Shown here one piece after another: positions 17,155 through 63,609 of a stretch of 64,000 nt of DNA (the stretch's first letter is position 1; each line of letters begins with the position of its first letter). Below the pieces are notes generated by a model. It saw only the letters and a program-made list of their open reading frames with translations, was not told the origin of the DNA and did no database searches. Made by a program: the position numbers and the translations under genes. This DNA is from Verrucomicrobiales bacterium (GTDB taxonomy: Bacteria > Verrucomicrobiota > Verrucomicrobiia > Limisphaerales > J093), in NCBI GenBank assembly GCA_037439785.1, contig JBBIVJ010000001.1, positions 33,114 through 97,113 of the forward strand, read 5' to 3'.

Positions 17155-18024
17155 ATGAAGGTTTTCATTGATGGCAAGTACTACCCGGAGCGGGACGCCA
17201 AGATTTCGGTGTTCGATCACGGCCTGCTGTACGGGGATGGGGTGTTCGAGGGCATCCGCGTGTATCACGGGCGGGTGTTCAAGCTCAGGGAGCACTTGGA
17301 CCGGTTGTTTTGCTCGGCCAAGGCCTTGTTGCTGGACATCCCGCTGTCTCATGCCCAGATGACCCGGGCGGTGGTGGAGACCTGCCGCGTCAACCGCCTG
17401 CGCAACGGCTATGTCCGGCTGGTGGTCACGCGGGGCGTGGGCACGCTGGGGTTGAACCCCAACCGCTGCAAACGGCCGTCGGTGATCATCATTGCGGGGA
17501 GCATCCAGCTTTACCCGCCGGAGTTGTACGCGCGCGGCATGGAGATCGTGACGGTGCCCACCACGCGCAACCACCACAACGCGGTCAACCCCGCCATCAA
17601 GTCGCTCAATTACCTCAACAACATCCTGGCCAAGATCGAGGCCAACATCGCCGGCGTCGAAGAGGCGGTCATGCTCAACGCCGAGGGGTTCGTGGCGGAA
17701 TGCACCGGCGACAATCTGTTCATCGTCAAGGGCGGCCAGCTCCTGACCCCGCCCCTGTCCGCGGGCGCCCTCTACGGCATCACCCGCGCCACGGTCATGG
17801 ACCTGGCCCGCGAGGCCGGGCTGCCGGTGGTGGAAACGAACCTGACCCGTTACGACTTGTTCAATGCGGATGAGTGCTTCCTGACCGGCAGCGCGGCCGA
17901 GATCATGCCGGTGGTCAAGGTGGACGGCCGGACCATCGGGTCGGGCCAGCCGGGGCCGGTCACCCGGCAGTTGACCGAGCGCTATCACGCCCTGACCCGC
18001 GTTTCGGGCGAGCCGATTGTTTGA
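17155..18024 (+). CDS. ilvE: branched-chain amino acid aminotransferase (class IV PLP enzyme)
   Basis: 289 aa. FDHGLLYGDGVFEGIRVY, the YVRLVVTRG pattern, and AIKSLNYLNNILAKIEA containing the class IV PLP lysine context. Confidence 0.9.
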   Translation: MKVFIDGKYYPERDAKISVFDHGLLYGDGVFEGIRVYHGRVFKLREHLDRLFCSAKALLLDIPLSHAQMTRAVVETCRVNRLRNGYVRLVVTRGVGTLGLNPNRCKRPSVIIIAGSIQLYPPELYARGMEIVTVPTTRNHHNAVNPAIKSLNYLNNILAKIEANIAGVEEAVMLNAEGFVAECTGDNLFIVKGGQLLTPPLSAGALYGITRATVMDLAREAGLPVVETNLTRYDLFNADECFLTGSAAEIMPVVKVDGRTIGSGQPGPVTRQLTERYHALTRVSGEPIV

Positions 18025-18134
18025 GCACGCCGGCCGGGCGGCAGACCTCACCCGCCAGCGCAGGGCCCGCGGTCCGGGTTGCGGGTGCCTTGCTTGACTT
18101 GCGCCCGGCCCGGGAGGACATAATCCAGACGCCT

Positions 18135-18647
18135 ATGCTGTGCATGGTTTGCCAGAAAAAGGAAGCGCGGGTCCACCTCACCGACGTCAAGAACGGCAAG
18201 ATCAAAAAGGTGGACCTGTGCGAGGATTGTGCCCGGGCCAAGGGCGTGGACGACCCCACCGGCTTTGCGCTGGCGGACCTCCTGCTGGGCCTGGGCGCCT
18301 CCGAGGAACTGACCTCGGGCACGGCCGAGGGCCGCGAGGCGGCCTGCCCGGTCTGTGGCCTGACCCAGTCGGACTTCAAGAAGGCCGGGCGGCTGGGCTG
18401 CCCCACCTGTTACGAGACCTTCGCCGAAGGGCTGGCGGGGATGCTCAAGACCATGCACAAGGGCACGCGCCACGCGGGCAAGGTGCCCCGCGCCCTCAAG
18501 CTGGGCCGGGAGGTCCAGGAGCGGTTGCAGGCCCTGCAACGCCAGCTCGAGGCGGCCATTGCCGTGGAAAACTACGAGGAGGCCGCCCGCCTGCGTGACG
18601 CCATCAGGCACCTCAAGGACAACCCCGGCGCCATCGTGACCGGTTGA
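18135..18647 (+). CDS. mcsA: McsA-like protein (zinc-finger plus UVR domain; activator of protein arginine kinase)
   Basis: An internal ATG gives 170 aa. Paired CxxC motifs (CMVCQ...CEDCA; CPVCG...CPTCY) and a C-terminal UVR motif (AVENYEEAARLRDAIRHLK). It overlaps the mcsB start region. Confidence 0.8.
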   Translation: MLCMVCQKKEARVHLTDVKNGKIKKVDLCEDCARAKGVDDPTGFALADLLLGLGASEELTSGTAEGREAACPVCGLTQSDFKKAGRLGCPTCYETFAEGLAGMLKTMHKGTRHAGKVPRALKLGREVQERLQALQRQLEAAIAVENYEEAARLRDAIRHLKDNPGAIVTG

Positions 18648-18649
18648 CC

Positions 18650-19765
18650 ATGAAACTGCTCGAGTTTCTCAGCCCCCCCACCCAGGCCGCCCGCCGGAGC
18701 GGCCCCGGGGACCGCATCGTCATGTCCAGCCGCGTGCGGCTGGCCCGCAACCTGGCCGGTCACCCCTTCCCCGGCTGGGCCAAGAAGAACGATCGTCTCC
18801 AGGTCTGCGAACGCATCCGGGAAGCCGTGGTGCGTCAGCCGCGGATGCGGGACGGGTTCGTGGTCGCCCTTGAGACCCTTTCCGCGCTGGACAAGCAAAT
18901 CCTGGTCGAGCGGCACCTGATCAGCCGCGAGCACGCCGCCAAGGGCCCGGGCAGCGCCCTGGCCCTGAGCCGGGACGAACAGCTCTGCGTCATGATCAAC
19001 GAGGAGGACCACCTCCGGATGCAGGCCCTGCTGCCCGGCTGCCAGTTGAAGGAGGCGTGGACGGCCATTGACGCGCTGGACACCGGCCTGGAGCAGGACC
19101 TGGATTACGCCTTTTCCCACACCCTGGGCTACCTCACCGCCTGCCCCACCAACGTGGGCACCGGCATCCGCGTCAGCGCCATGCTCCACCTGCCCGCCCT
19201 GGTGCTGGACGAGCAGATCACCCAGATCATCCAGGCGGTGAACAAGCTGGGGCTGGCCGTGCGCGGCCTTTACGGCGAAGGCACCGAGGCCCTGGGCAAC
19301 GTCTTCCAGGTCTCCAACCAGATGACCTTGGGCGAGTCCGAGTCCGAAATTGTGGAACGCCTGGCCAAGGTCGTCGCCCAGATCATCGAACACGAGGAAA
19401 ACGCCCGCGCCCGCCTGCTCGAAAAGCGCCCCAAGATGGTCTTCAACCACATCGGCCGCGCCTACGGCATCCTGGCCAACGCCCACAGCGTCTCCTCGAA
19501 GGAGGCCGTCAATCTCCTATCCCTGCTGCGGCTGGGGCTGGACCTGGGGCTGTTGCCCGACCTCCACCGCCCCCAGGTGGACGAATTGTTCATGCTCTCC
19601 CAGCCGGCTCACCTCCAGCTCCGCCACTCCGAGAAGCTCACCGCCGAGGAACGGGATGTCCTGCGCGCGGACATGTTGCGCGAAGCCCTGCGCGAGGTCC
19701 GCCGGCCGTTGGTGCCCCCCCCGCCGCCGCCCCCGCCGGCGGTGGACAAGCTGCCCCAACCGTAG
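18650..19765 (+). CDS. mcsB: protein arginine kinase McsB (ATP:guanido phosphotransferase family)
   Basis: RVRLARNLAGHPFP, INEEDHLRMQ and the CPTNVGTGIRVSAMLHLP guanido-kinase signature. ATG at 18650 (the track begins at TTG 18644). Confidence 0.9.
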   Translation: MKLLEFLSPPTQAARRSGPGDRIVMSSRVRLARNLAGHPFPGWAKKNDRLQVCERIREAVVRQPRMRDGFVVALETLSALDKQILVERHLISREHAAKGPGSALALSRDEQLCVMINEEDHLRMQALLPGCQLKEAWTAIDALDTGLEQDLDYAFSHTLGYLTACPTNVGTGIRVSAMLHLPALVLDEQITQIIQAVNKLGLAVRGLYGEGTEALGNVFQVSNQMTLGESESEIVERLAKVVAQIIEHEENARARLLEKRPKMVFNHIGRAYGILANAHSVSSKEAVNLLSLLRLGLDLGLLPDLHRPQVDELFMLSQPAHLQLRHSEKLTAEERDVLRADMLREALREVRRPLVPPPPPPPPAVDKLPQP

Positions 19766-19787
19766 CATGTTCCACCCGAGGTGACGT

Positions 19788-22274
<2,487 letters not shown>

Positions 22275-26527: not shown

Positions 26528-27091
26528 TCACGGCTTTCCGGACGCGGCCGGGTTGGTGGCGTCCGCCAGCCAGCGGTCCAGCCGCGCGCGCAGCTCCCCG
26601 GCCGCCGGCGCGCCGGCCATCGCGGCCTCGACGCGGCCGTGGCGCACGAACAGCAGCGTGGGCACGGCGCTGACCCGATACTGCTCGGCCAGCCGGCGGG
26701 CGCGGTCCACGTCCACCTTCACCACCTTCAGCCGGCCGGCGTACTCGGTCGCCACCCCGGCCAGCACGGGGGCCAGGCGTTTGCAAGGGCCGCACCAAGT
26801 GGCGTAAAAATCCACCACCACGGGCAGGTCGGCGCGGAGCACCGCGGCCTCGAAATCCGCTTCCCCGATCGGCTGCACCGGGCCATCCGTGCGGCGCAGT
26901 TCGCGGCCGCCGGCCAGGTCCCGCGCGGTGCTGAAGTAAAAGAGCCCGCCCAGCAGGCCGCCAAACAGGGCGCCGCGCCACCAGGTCGCCGTCAACGGAC
27001 AGGCGCCCGAACTGCACTGGCCCAGCCAGCCCAGGGCCGCGCCCAGGCCGGCCCCCACCCCCACGCTCAACAACAAGGTCAACATGGCCAC
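26528..27091 (-). CDS. membrane-anchored thioredoxin
   Basis: WCGPC active site within a thioredoxin fold (VVVDFYATWCGPCKRLAP ... VPTLLF). N-terminal hydrophobic segment with an extra C-x4-C (GQCSSGACP). GTG at 27091 or ATG at 27085. Confidence 0.85.
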   Translation of the reverse strand: MAMLTLLLSVGVGAGLGAALGWLGQCSSGACPLTATWWRGALFGGLLGGLFYFSTARDLAGGRELRRTDGPVQPIGEADFEAAVLRADLPVVVDFYATWCGPCKRLAPVLAGVATEYAGRLKVVKVDVDRARRLAEQYRVSAVPTLLFVRHGRVEAAMAGAPAAGELRARLDRWLADATNPAASGKP

Positions 27092-27266
27092 AATACGATT
27101 CTTATCCGGCGCGGGCGCGGGCCGCAGGGCCCGTCTTGGAACACCCTTGGCAGGGTTTCTCCCCGTGCCCCGCCGCCTCGCGCGCTTTCCGAAGATGAGC
27201 CGCCAGGGCGGCAGGAGTTACAGTTTAGCCCGGCTCCGCTCCGGTTTTTGCGACTCCGCCCGGCGC

Positions 27267-51610: not shown

Positions 51611-54600
51611 TCAGGGCACCACCACCAGGCGGTAGAACCGCGCCGGCCGGCCGGTCGCGGGATCGGTCCAGCGCAACGTCGGCCCGGTGCTGACGCGGGT
51701 AGCCAACGGTTCCCACGTGCGCAGGTCCTCGGAGACTTCGAGCCGGTAGATCAGACCGGGCACGCTCGTCAATTCGAGCACGACGCCGTCGTCCGGGTTG
51801 AGGGTGACCGACTCCAGCCGCGGCATGTGGGGGTGCAGCACCAGCGTGGCGCGGGCCAGGGCGGCGACTTCATAGCCGTGGTCCCAGGCGACCTGACCCG
51901 CCACGACCTCCAGTTCGAGCGGGGCCGTCCCGCTGGCGGGCAGGGCCAGGAAGGTCAATTCCAGCACCGGGGCATCGAGTGCGGTCCAGGCGGCCGGGCC
52001 GGCAGCGGCGAAGTGCACCGCGCCGGAAGTGGCGTCGGTGCTGAGCAACGTGGTGGCACTGGCGGGAACTGCAGGGCCGGGCGGGGGCGGGTCTGGCGTC
52101 GCAGGTTGGAGGGCGTGGGCGGGGTACTGCAGTTGGAAGCTCAGCCCGGAAAGGCCCTCAGGGGGGTGGACCAGACGCACGCGGACCGTCACGCGTTCTC
52201 CCGGCCAGAGCGCAAGGCGGTCGGCCTCGACGATCAGTGTCGTAACCGGCGCCGCCGCCGGGCGGGGAGCGGCGAGGGTGGGTCGGCCCCGCACCACCCT
52301 CGATGCCCGGCCCGGATCGAGCGGGGCCGGCGCCGGGTCGAGGCCCACGACCACGCGCAGGACCTTGATCACATCGCCCGCATCGAGGCTCTGGCTGGCG
52401 TTGAGGTCGTTGCCGGTGACATCCCATGGGCGGACAGGGTCCAGGAGCGCGATCAGGCGCTGGATCAAGGCGGCGTCGCCGACGTCCAGCGCGTCGTTGC
52501 CGTTGTTGTCGCCGGGCAGGTGGCGGCGGCGGATTTCGACGCTGCCGGGGTCGGCGCCGTTGCCAAAGTCAAGCAGCGCGCCTGAGCGGTCAGCCACGTC
52601 GGCGAGGACGGGGACCAGCTCGGTGGTCAGGGATTGGGGGACGCTGCGGGCGCGCAAGGAGAGGGTGGCCAGCGGAATCGTGCCGGCGGGCAGTTCACTT
52701 CCCGGCAGCGAGAGCGTGGCGCGGACGACGCCGGCTTCCTGCACGTTCACTTCCGTCAGCGCCGCACTCAACGCCGGGGCCTCGGACCAGGTCCAGACCG
52801 GATCGCGGAAACGCTCGGGATCGTACTGGAGCCACAAGGTCAGGCCGCCCACGCCCCCGGAGCTGCGGAAGACCAGGTCGCTGGCCAGCCGACGCCCTTC
52901 CCGCACCGCGGCCGGCTGGCCCGGGGTGAGCAGGCGGGCGGGTTCATACGTCACCCGCACCTCGGCCTCGGCCGTGTTGCCGGCCGGGTCGCGCGCGATG
53001 ACCCGCAGCCGGTTTTCGCCGCGCACCCACCGCAAGCCGGGGCGCTGGAAATGGCCCTCCACCAACGTCAGTTCCCCCATCTCCCGGCCGTTCCAGTACC
53101 AGGTGACGGAGGCCACGGCAACATTGTCCACGACCGTGCCCGCCAGCACAAACCGGTCATCGTCGGTCAGACCCGCGGCGGGCGAAGTCAGCGTCAGCAC
53201 GGGCGGTTCGGTTTCCAGTCCGATCTGGAAACTCTCCAGCCCGACCAGGTCCGCCGGAAAAGAAGGGGGTGCGCCGGCCCCGCCGGTGACCAGCGACAGC
53301 ACGCCGGAAACGCCGGTCTTGCTCCCCGCCCGCAGGGCCGAGACGTAATCCGGCCCACGGGCCGATTCCCACACCCGCATCTGCACATGAGCCAGGGCGC
53401 CGGGCGCCACCCCGGGGATAGCCACCACTCCCCCCACAATGTAACCGGCCGCCGCGCCGGTGCGGAAGGGAACCGCCGCGCCCACCGGCTCGAGGGGGTC
53501 GGGGGTGAGGCCGGCAAACAACTGGGCCAGATAGGCCGGTCCCGCCAGGGGGGTGGTCCCGTCTGCCTCGAATATCGGGGCATCCACGCCGGCCAGGGCG
53601 ACGCGGTTGTTGAAGTGGACCGTGCCGCCCGGCTCGAGCGGGAGCACGCGCACCACGACGGGTTGGGAGACCGCGCTGCCGGCGGCGTTGCGCACCTCGA
53701 CCCAGTAGGTCCCGGCGTTATCCAGTTGCAACGCGGGCCATTCCAGCCGGGCAGTGGTGGCCGCCGGGAGGGGCTGACCGTTGCGGTACCACTGGAAGGT
53801 CAACGGCCCGGCGCCAATGGCGGTGACGGCCAATGCCGCGGTTTCTCCCACCCGTTGTTCGACCCCGCTCGGATGGGCGAGAATTTCGGGAAGCGGCGGG
53901 GGGGCGGTCACGGTGAGCGGCACCGGGGGGCTGCTGGCCTCCCCATAAGGACTGAGCACGCGCACGTGGTAATCGCCGGCGTGTTCCGGCGTCACCGCGG
54001 CCAGGGTGAAGCGGGGCGCGTTGGGGGCGTCAGGCAGGCGGACGTTGTTGTGATACCACTCGAAGGTCAACGGCGGGGTGCCCGCGACTTCCACGGTAAA
54101 GGTGGCCGGCGCCCCCTCGGGGACGCTGACCGGTTGCGGGGGACTCAGAATCTGCGGCGGCACGTTCACCACCAACAGGGCCGGATCGCTGGTCACCGCC
54201 CCCAGGGCGTTGCTCACCCGCACGCGGTAGATGCCGGCCTGTTCGGGCTGAACCTCCGGCAGCCGGAGCACCGGCCCGGTGGCCCCGGGCAGCTCGGTGT
54301 TATTGAACCACCATTGGTAGGCCAGCGGTGACGTGCCCACGGCCTCGACATTCAGCTCGACCGGCTGCCCGGCCAGGACGGCCTGACCAAGCGGCTGCCG
54401 CACAATGCGCGGGGCCGCGGGCAGGATGGTGTAGGTCCCCTCGACCACCGGCGACACCGGGTTGCCCGCGTAGAAAGCCCGGGCCTTCAGTGTGGCCGAT
54501 TCGGTCAGCGCGGTAAGCCCCTCGCTGAGGAGCGGGGCGCCGGCGCCGGGCTCGGAGCCATCCACGGTGTAGCGGATGGCGGCGCCGACCACCGGTGATT

Positions 54601-56575
54601 CGGCGCGGATACTCACCTCCAGCACGAACTCGCCGCCGGGCGGGTCCAGCACCAGCAACGGGGCAGGCTCGGCCGGGAGCGAGTCGGGGTCTGTCGGGTC
54701 GGTGTCGGCCAGCCATTCCTGCAGGGTGTTGGCCCCGTCTTCATCCGCATCTGCGAGGGCGGCGGCATCGTCCCGCTCGAACCAGGCAGGGCCAAAATGC
54801 GCCTCCCTCCAGGAGCCGGGTATGCTGTCGTTCCAGCGGTCCTCCAGGAACAGCGCCTTCACCTCCTCCGACACTGCCTGCCCGCCCCTGACCAGCAGCG
54901 CCCGCACCAGGGTGGACCGCGTCAGCGTGATGGGTCCCGAATAGAGCAGGGAGTCGGCCGTGGGTTCGGTACCATCCACCGTGTACCGCACTTCGCTGTC
55001 CGGACGCAGGTTGGTGAGGGTGACCTGCAGGGTGCCCGTGAAGAAGTTGCGGTCGGGGCTGATCTGCAGCGGTGGTCCGGCTTCGCGCACGGTGAGCACC
55101 TGGTTTGCGGCCACGCGCGGGTAGGTGGTGATCGCCCCGGAAGGCCACCGGACCTGCAGTTCCGCCCCCTCGTTTGCGGGGCCGAGGCCGAAATGGGCGA
55201 TATCGCTGGAGCCGCCCCAGCCGTCGTAGGCCACCACCTCGCGCATTTGCCAGCGCGGCACCCCCTCGACCACCGTCAGCACCCGGACCCGTGCCCCGAG
55301 ATGGGTACGGCCGGGAGCCGGCTGCAATCGGACGCGCAGCCAGTGGTTGGAGTTGCCCAGGTTGCGATAGAGCCCGCTCCCGGTCAGAGAATAACTTTGT
55401 TGAGTGACGAAGAAGTCCAGAAACCCGTTCTGGTCGTAGTCGTCCATGACCAAGGCCAATGTCAACCCTGGTTCGGTAAGTCCGGTATTTTCAATACGCC
55501 GCTCAAAGGTGCCGTCGCCCCGGTTGCGATAGATAAGCACCAGCGGGTCCTGGCCTTCGAAGGAGCGCGAGAAATTGGCCACAAACAGGTCCAGATTCCC
55601 GTCATTGTCGTAATCCGCCCAAGAGCAGCCGCTGGAATCCGCTTCGTCCTCGACCTGGGGGCCGCTGGTCACCCGCGTGAAGGAGCCGTCGCCATTGTTG
55701 CGGTACAGGAAATTGGGACCGAAGCGATTGGCCACGTACAAATCCAGGTTCCCATCGCCGTTGTAGTCCCCCCAGGTGCCGCTCATGGAGTAGCCGCCGT
55801 CGTTGACCACCTCGCCGGAGGTGATGCGGACCAAGGTCCCCCGGTCATTACGGAACAGGGCATTGTTGCGATGGTCAGCGACGGCAACAAAGAGGTCCGG
55901 ATCCCCGTCGTTGTCGTAATCCCCCCAGGCACAGCCCTGGCTTCCTGTGATTTGCCCCACTTCGCTGTCGCTTACCGGCACCAAGAACCCATCCCTGCTG
56001 TTTCGCCACAATGTGCCGGGACCCCCGGGATTCGCCAGGAACAGGTCCAGGTAGCCGTCTCCGTCAAAATCCCCCCACGCGGCGCCGACAGCGGCTCCCC
56101 AAATGCCCCATGGCCTTTCTTCGATCCACCCTTCTCCAAAATCTACCAACATCGTGACCATGCGGAGAGTTCCGTCGCCCAGGTTCCGGAAAAGCCGCCC
56201 GGGACCACCGTTATTTCTCGCCAGGAAAAGGTCCACGTCCCCGTCGTTGTCATAGTCCCCCCAACTGCAGCCGCTCCAGCCCGCCGGGTCTTCGGGCAAC
56301 CACGGCCACCAAACGAACGTTCCGTCGCGCTGGTTGATAAAAAAGGCAGACCAGCGTGACTCTCTTCCGCTCGCAATGGAGCCGACGACAAAGAGGTCCA
56401 CCCACCCATCCCCATTGATGTCCGCCCAAGCGGCCGCGGGAAAACTGCCTTCCGACGGCAGCCCCACAGGACCGCCTCCAAAAGAGGGGGGATCCTGACA
56501 GGTCCCGTTGGTACTCCCCCCCACCGCCAGCCCCAAGATGAGGAACAACTCGATCGCCTTCGGCTTCATGGACAC
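51611..56575 (-). CDS. giant secreted surface protein: FG-GAP/VCBS repeats, ASPIC/UnbV-like domain, Fn3/CHB_HEX_C-like domains, three Ig I-set domains, cohesin-dockerin-cohesin
   Basis: 1654 aa (ATG at 56569 is likely the true start). Signal peptide. About 7 repeats of WGDYDNDGD.DLF..N. HWLRVRL ... VRWPSG. Three tandem Ig units with the (F/Y)(Q/E)W(Y/W) motif (53642-54418). Dockerin-like paired loops GDNNGNDALDVGDAALIQRL / DVTGNDLNASQSLDAGDVIKVL (52340-52516) are flanked by cohesin-like domains. Confidence 0.85.
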   Translation of the reverse strand: MSMKPKAIELFLILGLAVGGSTNGTCQDPPSFGGGPVGLPSEGSFPAAAWADINGDGWVDLFVVGSIASGRESRWSAFFINQRDGTFVWWPWLPEDPAGWSGCSWGDYDNDGDVDLFLARNNGGPGRLFRNLGDGTLRMVTMLVDFGEGWIEERPWGIWGAAVGAAWGDFDGDGYLDLFLANPGGPGTLWRNSRDGFLVPVSDSEVGQITGSQGCAWGDYDNDGDPDLFVAVADHRNNALFRNDRGTLVRITSGEVVNDGGYSMSGTWGDYNGDGNLDLYVANRFGPNFLYRNNGDGSFTRVTSGPQVEDEADSSGCSWADYDNDGNLDLFVANFSRSFEGQDPLVLIYRNRGDGTFERRIENTGLTEPGLTLALVMDDYDQNGFLDFFVTQQSYSLTGSGLYRNLGNSNHWLRVRLQPAPGRTHLGARVRVLTVVEGVPRWQMREVVAYDGWGGSSDIAHFGLGPANEGAELQVRWPSGAITTYPRVAANQVLTVREAGPPLQISPDRNFFTGTLQVTLTNLRPDSEVRYTVDGTEPTADSLLYSGPITLTRSTLVRALLVRGGQAVSEEVKALFLEDRWNDSIPGSWREAHFGPAWFERDDAAALADADEDGANTLQEWLADTDPTDPDSLPAEPAPLLVLDPPGGEFVLEVSIRAESPVVGAAIRYTVDGSEPGAGAPLLSEGLTALTESATLKARAFYAGNPVSPVVEGTYTILPAAPRIVRQPLGQAVLAGQPVELNVEAVGTSPLAYQWWFNNTELPGATGPVLRLPEVQPEQAGIYRVRVSNALGAVTSDPALLVVNVPPQILSPPQPVSVPEGAPATFTVEVAGTPPLTFEWYHNNVRLPDAPNAPRFTLAAVTPEHAGDYHVRVLSPYGEASSPPVPLTVTAPPPLPEILAHPSGVEQRVGETAALAVTAIGAGPLTFQWYRNGQPLPAATTARLEWPALQLDNAGTYWVEVRNAAGSAVSQPVVVRVLPLEPGGTVHFNNRVALAGVDAPIFEADGTTPLAGPAYLAQLFAGLTPDPLEPVGAAVPFRTGAAAGYIVGGVVAIPGVAPGALAHVQMRVWESARGPDYVSALRAGSKTGVSGVLSLVTGGAGAPPSFPADLVGLESFQIGLETEPPVLTLTSPAAGLTDDDRFVLAGTVVDNVAVASVTWYWNGREMGELTLVEGHFQRPGLRWVRGENRLRVIARDPAGNTAEAEVRVTYEPARLLTPGQPAAVREGRRLASDLVFRSSGGVGGLTLWLQYDPERFRDPVWTWSEAPALSAALTEVNVQEAGVVRATLSLPGSELPAGTIPLATLSLRARSVPQSLTTELVPVLADVADRSGALLDFGNGADPGSVEIRRRHLPGDNNGNDALDVGDAALIQRLIALLDPVRPWDVTGNDLNASQSLDAGDVIKVLRVVVGLDPAPAPLDPGRASRVVRGRPTLAAPRPAAAPVTTLIVEADRLALWPGERVTVRVRLVHPPEGLSGLSFQLQYPAHALQPATPDPPPPGPAVPASATTLLSTDATSGAVHFAAAGPAAWTALDAPVLELTFLALPASGTAPLELEVVAGQVAWDHGYEVAALARATLVLHPHMPRLESVTLNPDDGVVLELTSVPGLIYRLEVSEDLRTWEPLATRVSTGPTLRWTDPATGRPARFYRLVVVP

Positions 56576-56770: not shown

Positions 56771-57094
56771 ATGGAAGAGCATTACCACAACATGACACCT
56801 GAAGCCTCCGGACTTCCCCGCGAAAAACTGGTGGAAGACCTGCGCGTGTTGATCCACGACGCCGAACAACTCCTGAAGTCGGGCGCCGAAGAGGCCGGCG
56901 AAAAGGCCGCCGAGCTGCGCGCCCGCCTACAGGAATCCCTCGCCAAGGCCAAGGAGACCTGTCGCCGCCTCGAAGACCGCGCCGCCGCGGGCGCCAGGGC
57001 GGCCGACCGCGTCATCCGCGACCACCCCTACGAAAGCATGGGCGTGGCCTTCGGCGTGGGCGTGCTGCTGGGCGTGCTGATCAACCGCCGCTGA
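56771..57094 (+). CDS. DUF883/ElaB-YqjD-family membrane-anchored protein
   Basis: 107 aa. Helical N-terminal part, the IRDHPYESMGVAFGVGVLLGVLI motif, and a C-terminal tail anchor typical of ElaB/YqjD/YgaM. Confidence 0.8.
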   Translation: MEEHYHNMTPEASGLPREKLVEDLRVLIHDAEQLLKSGAEEAGEKAAELRARLQESLAKAKETCRRLEDRAAAGARAADRVIRDHPYESMGVAFGVGVLLGVLINRR

Positions 57095-57098
57095 CCGC

Positions 57099-57497
57099 AT
57101 GGCCGACTCCGCATCCGGTTCCGCGCCGGGAGGGGGCCTGTTCGACGTCATCCGCCGGCTCGCCGACGCCATGGTGGCCGCGGCCGAGCATCGGCTGGAG
57201 CTGTTCACCGTCGAACTCCAGGTCGAGAAGGTCCGGGCCCTGGACGTGCTGGTGCGCGCCGCCGCCTTGGTGGTGCTGGGAGTGCTGACCCTGGTGGCCG
57301 GCACCGCCACGGTCGTGGTCGCCCTTTGGCACACCTCTCCGGTGCTGGTCCTGGCGGGGGTCACCGTGCTCTACGGCCTGGGCACCGCGGCGCTGCTGGC
57401 CAGCATCCGACGCCGCCTGCACGCCGGGCCGAAGCCCTTTGCCGGCACGCTCGAGGAACTCCGCAAGGACCGCGCATGTTTTGGGAACAAGACCTGA
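57099..57497 (+). CDS. YqjE-like (phage-holin-3_6 / DUF1469-type) inner-membrane protein
   Basis: 132 aa. ELFTVELQVEKVR followed by two TM helices. It starts 5 nt after the ElaB-like gene, as in the yqjD-yqjE-yqjK arrangement. Confidence 0.7.
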   Translation: MADSASGSAPGGGLFDVIRRLADAMVAAAEHRLELFTVELQVEKVRALDVLVRAAALVVLGVLTLVAGTATVVVALWHTSPVLVLAGVTVLYGLGTAALLASIRRRLHAGPKPFAGTLEELRKDRACFGNKT

Positions 57498-60216: not shown

Positions 60217-60663
60217 TCAGGCCGGCGGTACCGCCGGCGGGGGCGGGGGCGGCGCGGCCGGGCCGGGAGGCGGTTGAACCAAGAGCGGCACCGGGTAACG
60301 GATTTTCATCACGTCATCCACCAGCACCTCGACGTAGTACGTGCCGGCCTGGGTGAACTCGACGCCGGTGAAGAGGGTCACGTTGATGGCGTGCTGGGTG
60401 GCGTCCTGCAGCGCAAAGCGGACGTTGCTCTGGCGCAGCACGGTGGTGCTGTCCGGCGCGGTGAAGCGGACCGTCTCGGTGAACTGGCCCACCCCGGCGG
60501 TCCAGCGGTTGAAGACGCAGAGCTTGAACGCCTTGATGGGCAGTTGCGGCACGCGCACGTAGCCGAGGATGCCCACCAGGATGAAGCTGCCCGTGACCTC
60601 CTGGCGGACGTCTTCGCACAAGAGCGACGCCTGCAGGTCGGGCAAGATGCGGGTCGGATTCAT
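60217..60663 (-). CDS. hypothetical small beta-rich protein
   Basis: An internal ATG (MNPTRILPDLQASLLCEDVRQE...) gives 148 aa. All-beta-looking alternating pattern with a Pro-rich tail. No function recognised. Confidence 0.55.
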   Translation of the reverse strand: MNPTRILPDLQASLLCEDVRQEVTGSFILVGILGYVRVPQLPIKAFKLCVFNRWTAGVGQFTETVRFTAPDSTTVLRQSNVRFALQDATQHAINVTLFTGVEFTQAGTYYVEVLVDDVMKIRYPVPLLVQPPPGPAAPPPPPPAVPPA

Positions 60664-60914
60664 GATCGGTTCCAAATCAAGCGGCGAGTCTGGCGCGGAC
60701 GGGCGGGAAAGCAACGCGCAGTTTTCCGGGCGGCATGTGGGCGGACCTCCGACCGTGGACCACTCCAGCGGTGAAAGGAACGGGGAGGGCTGGCTCGCCG
60801 TCCTGCTCCTGCACGGTAGCGTGACCAACGCTCAGCAGCGGGAGAGGAACACGGGCAAGCCGGCGCCGCGCGCAAGTGTGGGGGTGGACCGGGCTGCCGG
60901 AATGCCGGACCGTC

Positions 60915-61553
60915 TCAGGCACCGGCCGCGGTCGCGGGCGTGGCCAGGATGGCCTCCAGGCAGCCGGCCACATCCGGCAGCGCCTCCGGATTGAGCCACG
61001 CCCGCCGTACCCAGAAGAACCCCGGCACGCTCTGCGCCCGGATCTCCGGCTCCCCCGCCGCAAATTCCACCAGCAACTCCCCCTCCCGCCGGTAAAACCG
61101 GTGCGCCAGCGTTTCCGGGTCCAGCACCCAGTACTCCTGCACCCCGTGCTCCTCGTACGCCGCAAACTTCGGCCCCACGTCCCGCTCCTCCGACCACGGC
61201 GAGAGCGCCTCCACCACCAGCGTCGGCGCAAACGGCGCGTGCGTGGGCAGCAACCGCGCCACCTGCTCGGGCGTGAAGTAGGCCAGGTCCGGCAAAAACA
61301 CGTTGCGCGAACTCAGCCGCACCGCCACCACCTCCCGAAACAACTCTCCCAGCTTGCGGCGTTCAAGGTAGCCGGCCAGCAAACGGTCCAAAAAGTTGAC
61401 CAGCCGTGCGTGACGCAGGTTCACCGGTGAGTGCATAAACTTCTCCCCGTCTATGAGGTCGGCGTGGACGCCCGGCTGGAGCCACTCCAGGAACTCCTCC
61501 GCCGTCCAGAGCTGGCGCTCGCAGTCTTTGCTGATCGAGACCACGGTCGGCAT
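60915..61553 (-). CDS. Uma2-family (DUF820) putative endonuclease
   Basis: 212 aa. The pattern W(T/S)xEEFxxW ... ELIDGE-like (ADLIDGEKFM) ... PDLAYF ... P.LVVE.LSP ... D...K...Y...GV.EYW.LDP matches the family. Confidence 0.85.
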   Translation of the reverse strand: MPTVVSISKDCERQLWTAEEFLEWLQPGVHADLIDGEKFMHSPVNLRHARLVNFLDRLLAGYLERRKLGELFREVVAVRLSSRNVFLPDLAYFTPEQVARLLPTHAPFAPTLVVEALSPWSEERDVGPKFAAYEEHGVQEYWVLDPETLAHRFYRREGELLVEFAAGEPEIRAQSVPGFFWVRRAWLNPEALPDVAGCLEAILATPATAAGA

Positions 61554-61604: not shown

Positions 61605-62156
61605 TCACACCACCTCCCGGTACACATCCGGGTGGGGGCGCGAGATCACCACGGCGTTGACCAGGACGCCGGCCTCGGCAATGACCCGCCGGCCGGCGGC
61701 CACGGCGCTTTGCACGGCCCCCACGTCACCGGTCATGGTGCAGAAGGCTTTTCCGCCCAGCGCCATCGCCAGGCGCACCTCGAGCAGTTGCACCGGGGCG
61801 GCCTTGGCCGCGGTGTCGGCGGCCTGGATCAGGGTGGCCACGTTGAAGGACTCGAGGATGCCCAGCGCGCCGTCGGGCTCGGGGGTCTGGGTGCGGCCCA
61901 GGGCGGTGAAGACGTCCGGATGGACGTTGGGAATCACGAACGAGTCAATCAGGCAGCCGTGAGCCACCTCCGCCCCGGCCTGGACGGCGCTCTGCACGGC
62001 CGCGGCGTCGCCGCCGATCAGGACCATGTACTTGCCCGAGCAGATCGAGCGTGACAACAGCAGGCGCACGTTGCCGGCCTTGAGCATGGTGTCCGCCACC
62101 TCGAAGCCGGCGGCCACGCTCGACAGTTCAATCAGGCCAATGGATTTTTCGCTCAT
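61605..62156 (-). CDS. pduT: tandem-BMC-domain microcompartment shell protein, PduT-like
   Basis: An internal ATG (Met242 of the track ORF) gives 183 aa with two BMC domains (IGLIELSSVAAGFEVADTMLKAG... and LGILESFNVATLIQAADTAAKAA...). Cys39 in SICSGKY is at the position of the PduT 4Fe-4S ligand. ATGA overlap with the pduS-like stop. Confidence 0.9.
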   Translation of the reverse strand: MSEKSIGLIELSSVAAGFEVADTMLKAGNVRLLLSRSICSGKYMVLIGGDAAAVQSAVQAGAEVAHGCLIDSFVIPNVHPDVFTALGRTQTPEPDGALGILESFNVATLIQAADTAAKAAPVQLLEVRLAMALGGKAFCTMTGDVGAVQSAVAAGRRVIAEAGVLVNAVVISRPHPDVYREVV

Positions 62157-63469
62157 GGGATTCGCTCCAGGACAATGCGGTCGGTGACGTCCACGACCCG
62201 CGCGTCCACCGGGGCGTGAATCGGCGCGCCCAGCGCGCCGTCCGGGACCCGGCCCAGGGCCTGGCCGGCGCGCACGAGATCGCCGGGCTGGACGAGCGGG
62301 AGGCAGGCCGCGCCGGCATGTTGCTTGAGGGGCAGGACCACCCGCCGGGGTTCGAGGGTCACGGGTTCCCAGGGTGCGGGGTGGTCGTACGGCTGGAGGT
62401 GGAGTCGGCGCATCAGGCTTTTGATGGGCACGCGACGGCCGTCGCGCATGGGGTGCGGGCGGACCGTGGCCGGGCCGGTCCACTTGAGGCCGGCCCGGCG
62501 CATTTCCGCCCTGGAGCGGTCGCAGGCTTCTTTGGGGAAGAGCTCTTCCGGGCAGGCGTAAAGCGTGCACAAGCCGCACGCGCAGCAGAGCGCCGCCCAC
62601 TGATTCCAGTGCTCCGCGCCGGTGGCGGTGAAGGCCAGGCTGCGCATGACCTGGTGCGGCTCGACCGCGTAGCCCAGCAGGTAGCGCGGGCAGTATTCGG
62701 TGCAGTACCGACACTGGTCGCAGGCAGATTTGCCGATGGCGTTCTGAGCGGCGGCGGGTTTGAGTTTGCGCGCAATCACGGGGTGGTCGCGCGGCAGCAC
62801 CACCACGCCGGTGGTGGTTTTGGTGACGGGGGTGTCCAGGTCCTCGGTGGTCTCGCCCATCATGAGGCCGCCCACGCACAGCACGGGTTGCTCGGTGGCC
62901 CCCCCGCCCGCGGCCGCGATCGCGTCACGAAAAGTCGTGCCCACCGGGACCGTGAGGGTGGTGGGCTGCTTGACCGCCCCGGCCAGGGTGAGGGTCTTGT
63001 GGGTGACCGGGCGGCCCTCGGCGGCGGCGGCCACGTTGACCAGGGTTTCCACGTTGCAGACCACCACGCCCACGTGCAGCGGCAGGCCGGCCGGCGGGAT
63101 CAACCGCCCGGTGGTGGTGTACACCAGGTCATACTCGTCGCCCGCCGGGTAGTAATCGCCCAGCCAGTGCACCCGAATGGGCGTGCCCTGACACGCGGCC
63201 TCGACCGCCTCGACCGCGTGGCGGTTCTTGGCCTTGATGCCGATGATGCCCGCCCGCGCGCCTACGGCCTCCATCGCCAGCCTCAGGCCGTGGACCAGCT
63301 CCCGTGCCTGGCGCTCCATTACCGCGGCGTCCTTGTGCAGGAGCGGTTCGCATTCGGCGCCGTTGGCGATGACGATCTCCGCCCGGGCCGCGAGCTTGAC
63401 GTGCGTGGGGAACCCGCCCCCGCCGGCGCCAACCACGCCGGCCTGGAGGATCTGTTCCGCCAGGCTCAT
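62153..63469 (-). CDS. pduS: PduS-like flavin/iron-sulfur oxidoreductase (RnfC/NuoF-like N-domain, SLBB, two 4Fe-4S motifs)
   Basis: 438 aa. GAGGGGFPTHVK nucleotide/flavin loop. CDQCRYCTEYCP and CCACGLCTLYACP ferredoxin-type clusters. C-terminal beta-rich domain. Confidence 0.85.
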   Translation of the reverse strand: MSLAEQILQAGVVGAGGGGFPTHVKLAARAEIVIANGAECEPLLHKDAAVMERQARELVHGLRLAMEAVGARAGIIGIKAKNRHAVEAVEAACQGTPIRVHWLGDYYPAGDEYDLVYTTTGRLIPPAGLPLHVGVVVCNVETLVNVAAAAEGRPVTHKTLTLAGAVKQPTTLTVPVGTTFRDAIAAAGGGATEQPVLCVGGLMMGETTEDLDTPVTKTTTGVVVLPRDHPVIARKLKPAAAQNAIGKSACDQCRYCTEYCPRYLLGYAVEPHQVMRSLAFTATGAEHWNQWAALCCACGLCTLYACPEELFPKEACDRSRAEMRRAGLKWTGPATVRPHPMRDGRRVPIKSLMRRLHLQPYDHPAPWEPVTLEPRRVVLPLKQHAGAACLPLVQPGDLVRAGQALGRVPDGALGAPIHAPVDARVVDVTDRIVLERIP

Positions 63470-63609
63470 GGCCGACTGAGGCTAGCGGCCGGGGGCGGTT
63501 TGGCGAGCCGATTCCGGCGCTGGCCGGCCGGCAGTCGCCCGCTTGCCCGGTCGGGGTGATTGCGGCGTCCCCGCTGCCGTCCTGCGTAGGGCGGCGTGCG
63601 GTCGCGCGG

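Follow-up and report, generated by a model that had tools for sequence, protein, structure and literature searches.

Does an isolated pair of genes for a PduS-like reductase and a PduT-like shell protein serve a microcompartment encoded elsewhere in the genome, or does it work on its own? This question is raised by a stretch of 64,000 nucleotides from the contig JBBIVJ010000001.1 of a Verrucomicrobiales bacterium (the window), in which a 438-aa reductase and a 183-aa tandem-domain shell protein are encoded next to each other. Very probably, the pair is a satellite belonging to a PVM-type (fucose/rhamnose) bacterial microcompartment (BMC) and represents a copy of its cofactor-recycling module, which consists of the metabolosome NADH dehydrogenase (MNdh) and the shell protein BMC-T^SE. 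Protein identities, domain order, conserved ligands, gene pairing, the link of the clade to PVM loci and the isolation of the pair were all observed directly. The module has been described before, and its position here is the usual one; the initial observation, made in a sequence-only reading of the window, was correct but ordinary.

Domain composition and identity of the reductase

The sequence-only reading had noted the two proteins as a PduS-like and tandem-BMC pair with overlapping genes. Both open reading frames were recovered at the coordinates in Table 1, on the minus strand, with the stop codon TGA of the MNdh gene and the start codon ATG of the shell gene sharing ATGA at 62153-62156. 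The motifs named in that reading, GAGGGGFPT, CDQCRYCTEYCP and CCACGLCTLYACP, were all found in the 438-aa protein, the first as a loop at aa 14-22. The Pfam matches to PF01512, PF10531 and PF13375 all exceeded their gathering scores.

Table 1. Coordinates of the gene pair, its domains and adjoining elements in the window
Feature	Position	Strand	Basis
MNdh (PduS-like metabolosome NADH dehydrogenase), 438 aa	62153..63469	-	Pfam domains and RnfC structure alignment
FMN/NADH-binding domain Complex1_51K, PF01512 (MNdh aa 8-147)	63029..63448	-	E 2.9e-44
SLBB beta-grasp domain, PF10531 (MNdh aa 161-205)	62855..62989	-	E 2.4e-9, above gathering score
Two 4Fe-4S motifs, Fer4_17, PF13534 (MNdh aa 249-310)	62540..62725	-	E 1.4e-15
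RnfC_N barrel-sandwich domain, PF13375 (MNdh aa 373-433), C-terminal	62171..62353	-	E 8.8e-15
BMC-T^SE (PduT-like tandem-domain shell protein), 183 aa	61605..62156	-	Two PF00936 domains
Cys39 codon, presumed pore 4Fe-4S ligand (R-S-I-C-S-G-K-Y-M)	62040..62042	-	Gap-free alignment to PduT Cys38
Candidate promoter-like element (TCGCCA, 16 nt, TAGCCT), with its end 10 nt upstream of the MNdh ATG	63479..63506	-	Tentative
Uma2 endonuclease, downstream neighbour of the pair	60915-61553	-	Pfam, E 1.5e-26

MNdh has been defined by four domains, namely PF01512, PF10531, a dicluster domain (printed as pfam13634) and PF13375, and is set apart from RnfC and NuoF by a circular permutation that places PF13375 at the C-terminus instead of the N-terminus (Sutter et al. 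2024, PMC11626177). The 438-aa protein has the four domains in the permuted order, the two clusters and an adjoining BMC-T^SE gene, and is an MNdh by this definition. The cluster ligands are C250/253/256/260 and C295(296)/298/301/306.

For comparison across the phylum, a scan of GTDB species-representative genomes gave 80 verrucomicrobial loci (labelled with L-numbers) with an MNdh 65-90 % identical, the closest being 90 % identical. More broadly, 162 relatives were confirmed in species genomes, and metagenomes contain thousands. Across the 79 verrucomicrobial MNdh sequences aligned, neither the eight cluster cysteines nor the GAGGGGFP loop varied (79 of 79). The shell gene adjoined MNdh in 79 of the 80 loci, and the contig of the remaining locus ends before the second gene. 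A side observation was locus L075, in a metagenome-assembled genome binned as Desulfobacteraceae, which carries a verrucomicrobial-type MNdh (68 % identical) with an aldehyde dehydrogenase (AldDH) gene immediately upstream in the same orientation; the explanation is either horizontal transfer or mis-binning of the contig.

The FMN/NADH domain, the SLBB domain and the two 4Fe-4S clusters of the window MNdh align with RnfC (9eri_C and 7zc6_C, E 3e-54), and its cysteines fall on the RnfC cluster motifs in both structures. The protein could thus be taken for the RnfC subunit of a membrane Rnf complex, misread as a microcompartment protein; it scored 247.3 bits on the TIGR01945 rnfC model, just over the cut-off of 245.95, and many homologues have been named RnfC by JGI. 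However, the order of the segments is swapped, with MNdh aa 373-431 corresponding to RnfC aa 31-88 and aa 4-309 to aa 128-421, so that RnfC_N is C-terminal rather than N-terminal, and the protein scores well short of the cut-offs of the RsxC and RnfC equivalogs. None of rnfA, rnfB, rnfD, rnfE or rnfG was present among the window genes scanned. Membrane partner genes are absent; instead, the gene is translationally coupled to one for a shell protein in 79 of the 80 loci. The RnfC reading was rejected on domain order, and its probability is negligible. Kinship with RnfC of an Rnf complex had been named in the sequence-only reading as an outcome that would speak against a microcompartment pair, and the position of RnfC_N at the C-terminus gives a negative answer.

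Shell protein and pore cysteine

Two PF00936 BMC domains were found within the 183 aa of the shell protein (E 8e-46), in agreement with BMC-T^SE as a single-layer tandem PF00936 protein of approximately 180 aa. Its best solved relatives were 3nwg (E 6e-52) and then the PduT structures 3pac and 3n79, aligned at full length (E 1e-43 to 1e-41). Cys39 (SICSGKY), which had been noted as lying where PduT binds its cluster, aligns without gaps to the cysteine of KPVCPGKY in 3nwg and of KTICPGKF in PduT 3pac, the latter being PduT Cys38. From this alignment it is predicted that the three Cys39 residues of a trimer hold a 4Fe-4S cluster in its central pore.

The motif R[ST]ICSGK[YF]M was present in 82 of 82 verrucomicrobial shell-protein homologues. 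No variation was seen among 81 aligned shell proteins in ICSGK, in the D-x-x-x-K edge lysines of both domains or in a PH near the C-terminus. The D-x-x-x-K edge lysines tile shell proteins together.

In the 150 closest representatives (50 %-identity clusters), the pore motif was CPGK in 71, CSGK in 23, CPGR in 9 and CAGK in 5. Roughly one-fifth of these 150 tandem-BMC representatives (P0256-P0405) lacked the pore cysteine (SPGK, TPGK, SSGK and others), which is consistent with non-Fe-S BMC-T paralogues. The published BMC-T^SE pore motif is CP(G/S)K and was given as universal (PMC11626177). The intended motif may be C(P/S)GK, because the authors counted PVM copies as BMC-T^SE.

It is improbable that this high-GC lineage keeps the pair shell-free as an NADH:acceptor complex and/or that the serine of CSGK alters the chemistry of the shell cluster. 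If it were so, the serine might, for instance, give the cluster a different potential or oxygen tolerance than CPGK does, suited to an aerobic compartment.

Isolation of the pair and link to PVM loci

No further shell gene was found in the 64-kb window by six-frame phmmer and iterated jackhmmer searches with Escherichia coli EutM and EutN queries, and no AldDH gene by a six-frame search with E. coli EutE. The same EutM, EutN and EutE searches recovered BMC-H, BMC-P and AldDH genes in related loci and thus served as a positive control. The absence of BMC-H, BMC-P and AldDH genes noted near the pair therefore holds across all 64 kb. Within the window, the locus corresponds to the make-up of a satellite, with shell genes of a single Pfam type, contiguous and with no BMC-H or BMC-P gene nearby. 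The approximately 40 other window genes scanned by Pfam had housekeeping and envelope functions only, and scans of the window for Rfam families (including the cobalamin riboswitch) and tRNAs gave none.

In a survey of more than 7,000 BMC loci, MNdh was found in 2,172, with the Fe-S shell protein adjoining in 97 %, and only in BMC types with AldDH; where the module occurred in the PVM type, 18 of 20 cases were in satellite loci (Sutter et al. 2024, PMC11626177). Here, the pair was isolated in 46 of the 80 loci, with no other shell gene and at least 3 kb of upstream flank. In 15 more, each from a different species, BMC-H, BMC-P and AldDH genes were no further than 10 kb away; the other 19 were too short to judge. 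The stand-alone position that the sequence-only reading had considered odd is thus the rule for the PVM type. The window pair shares with the published PVM satellites the same four domains, the C-terminal RnfC_N, the adjoining pore-cysteine shell protein, the phylum and the isolation. It differs in having CSGK where CP(G/S)K was reported, and the module occurs much more widely than in the survey's 20 PVM cases.

Of the pair-adjacent loci, L019 alone was annotated in full, and it proved to be a classic PVM locus with three BMC-H and three BMC-P genes. Its gene order is two BMC-H, acetate kinase, BMC-H, BMC-P, AldDH, two BMC-P, class II aldolase and an Ldh/Mdh-type dehydrogenase, and a DeoR regulator gene lies directly upstream of MNdh. 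In a neighbour-joining tree of MNdh, the adjacent state appeared in at least four separate lineages, and the clade of the window itself (L003-L013, L024 and others) was uniformly isolated. The nearest relatives with 10 kb of upstream sequence (L003-L006 and L008-L013) had no shell genes there, and their upstream genes showed no synteny with the window. Across the isolated loci, where synteny was confined to the level of clades, no third gene was shared, for instance one for an electron acceptor.

The PVM link also bears on the classical role of PduS as a cobalamin reductase, under which the reductase would regenerate adenosylcobalamin for a B12-dependent enzyme with the shell protein supplying electrons. 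This was the original assignment for Salmonella PduS (cited in PMC11626177), all of whose domains are present in the window MNdh. PduS and PduT of Salmonella and Citrobacter are homologous to the window proteins and have the same pore cysteine and gene adjacency. The PDU pair, however, sits in an operon of approximately 20 genes with a B12-dependent diol dehydratase and has the pore motif CPGK, whereas here two genes stand alone, with CSGK, and the compartment type does not depend on B12. In the PVM loci to which this clade is linked, the aldolase is of class II and no B12-dependent enzyme is encoded, the window has no cobalamin riboswitch in the Rfam scan and no B12 enzyme or cob gene among its Pfam-scanned genes, and the role has been argued against outside PDU and EUT loci (PMC11626177). 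The cobalamin reductase reading is very unlikely and was rejected on the absence of any B12 enzyme from PVM loci.

Coexistence of the pair with a distant main locus in Opitutus terrae

Opitutus terrae PB90-1, with a complete genome, has an isolated pair between groEL and a metallo-beta-lactamase gene. Its MNdh is 74 % identical to that of the window and overlaps the shell gene by 4 nt. This species has been listed with two PVM-type loci, one of them a satellite, comprising three BMC-H, one BMC-T and three BMC-P genes (Axen et al. 2014, Table S2), and its copy of the pair was thus counted there as a satellite. The PVM AldDH of O. terrae (Axen et al. 2014, supplement) is 71 % identical to the AldDH of L019 and is not encoded within 10 kb of the pair. 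The isolated pair, the distant AldDH and the listed PVM loci together indicate that at least one finished genome contains both such a pair and, at a distance from it, a PVM main locus. When the L019 AldDH was used as a query, the best 120 matches (down to 75 % identity) included neither the O. terrae main locus nor a contig of the window clade.

In approximately 12 Opitutaceae, including O. terrae (L001), the pair was located between groES-groEL and a Lactamase_B/ligA block. From this fixed site it follows that the satellite position is stably inherited in the family.

These observations can be set against the possibility, also raised from the sequence alone, that the module is an orphan, in a lineage without a main locus (through loss or from the outset), where the pair forms a free soluble or membrane-associated NADH:acceptor complex without a compartment. 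The 64 kb contain no further shell gene, all members of the window clade are isolated in their flanks, and the rest of the source genome is outside the view, all of which would fit an orphan. Against this, the residues of the shell-tiling edges are strictly conserved, which can be understood only if the protein is built into a shell; orthologues of the pair adjoin PVM loci in 15 species; the complete genome of O. terrae has both the pair and the main locus; and MNdh was restricted to AldDH-containing BMC types in the published survey (PMC11626177). We consider an orphan module to have only a slim chance of being correct. The proposal that the pair is a satellite of a PVC/PVM-type compartment, made from the sequence alone, is instead supported by the 15 species with an orthologous pair beside BMC genes, by L019 and by O. 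terrae.

Promoter region and regulation

A -35-like box, a spacer of 16-17 nt and a TAnnnT box at approximately -15 to -10 recur upstream of MNdh in L003-L010, L012, L013 and L024, in line with the candidate element of the window. No Shine-Dalgarno sequence was present before the MNdh start. This suggests that the pair has its own promoter with a leaderless or very short-leader transcript, and we infer that it is separately regulated. A search for a shared upstream operator by k-mer enrichment showed only promoter-like boxes. The Opitutaceae copies have instead TTGGCA, 17-18 nt and CATAAC upstream of MNdh.

Proposed function and points against the satellite reading

The sequence-only reading had proposed that a PduS-like/PduT-like pair moves electrons across the shell, and the match of domains, ligands and pairing to the published module argues for this. 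For a Clostridium botulinum pair, electron paramagnetic resonance, voltammetry and footprinting gave evidence that NADH reduces the shell cluster through MNdh, and NAD+ regeneration with electron export was proposed as the function of MNdh (PMC11626177). By analogy with these homologues, electron transfer, lumenal docking and NAD+ recycling are likely for the window MNdh. The shell protein would form a pseudo-hexameric trimer that tiles into the shell, and MNdh would dock at the lumenal face of the trimer and oxidize NADH produced by the encapsulated AldDH. Electrons would pass from FMN through the two 4Fe-4S clusters of MNdh to the pore cluster and on to a cytosolic acceptor, and NAD+ would be restored within the compartment with no need to divert lactaldehyde to propanediol. 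The pair would be a small transcription unit of its own, separate from the main locus for shell and enzymes, and the cell could thereby add the electron-export route independently.

Several points weigh against the satellite reading. The window covers 61.6 kb downstream of the pair and is limited to 0.5 kb upstream of it, and a main PVM locus in the source genome is one that we infer. The published biochemistry was carried out on a 4Fe-4S-binding homologue of a different BMC type and not on a PVM or CSGK protein, and the pore motif has serine in place of the proline of the published motif in all 82 verrucomicrobial copies. The shell protein scored 128.9 bits on the NCBIfam PduT equivalog TIGR02526, for which the cut-off is 250.3, and is therefore related to PduT without being the PduT of a PDU or EUT locus. 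Finally, a scan with strict sigma-70 and terminator consensus sequences gave no promoter or terminator at the pair.

As a satellite of a PVM-type microcompartment, the pair would add one more example of a module that recycles NAD+ in a protein organelle by exporting electrons through the shell. Three findings add slightly to the literature: the pore motif of this clade is CSGK instead of CPGK; the module is very common in Verrucomicrobiota; and in at least four separate lineages it adjoins the main locus, with no third gene travelling along.

Neighbouring and other genes in the window

Of the flanking genes that had been noted, the downstream Uma2 endonuclease was borne out by Pfam. The upstream glycoside hydrolase is plausible and unproven: the 129-aa C-terminal fragment there bears a faint resemblance to the C-terminus of a GH51 arabinofuranosidase (E ~0.7) with no Pfam match. 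The shell gene stop and the Uma2 start are separated by 51 nt, in which the scan gave no terminator. The Uma2 gene and a DUF6941 gene downstream of the pair (60217-61553, minus strand) were syntenic in L004 and L006, which are among its nearest relatives, and not in other loci.

Elsewhere in the window, genes for a UVR-motif protein, an ATP:guanido phosphotransferase and a ClpC-type double AAA+ ATPase follow one another at 17874-22274 (plus strand) and constitute an McsA/McsB/ClpC-like protein-arginine-kinase quality-control cluster. Such clusters are better known from Firmicutes. A 1654-aa secreted-type protein encoded at 51611-56575 (minus strand) has six FG-GAP repeats, ASPIC/UnbV and CHB_HEX_C domains and several Ig domains. 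A DUF883 (ElaB/YqjD-like) gene followed by a gene for a holin-X-like PF07332 membrane protein is located at 56771-57497 (plus strand), and the product of 26528-27217 (minus strand) has a thioredoxin domain fused to an N-terminal DUF6132 domain.

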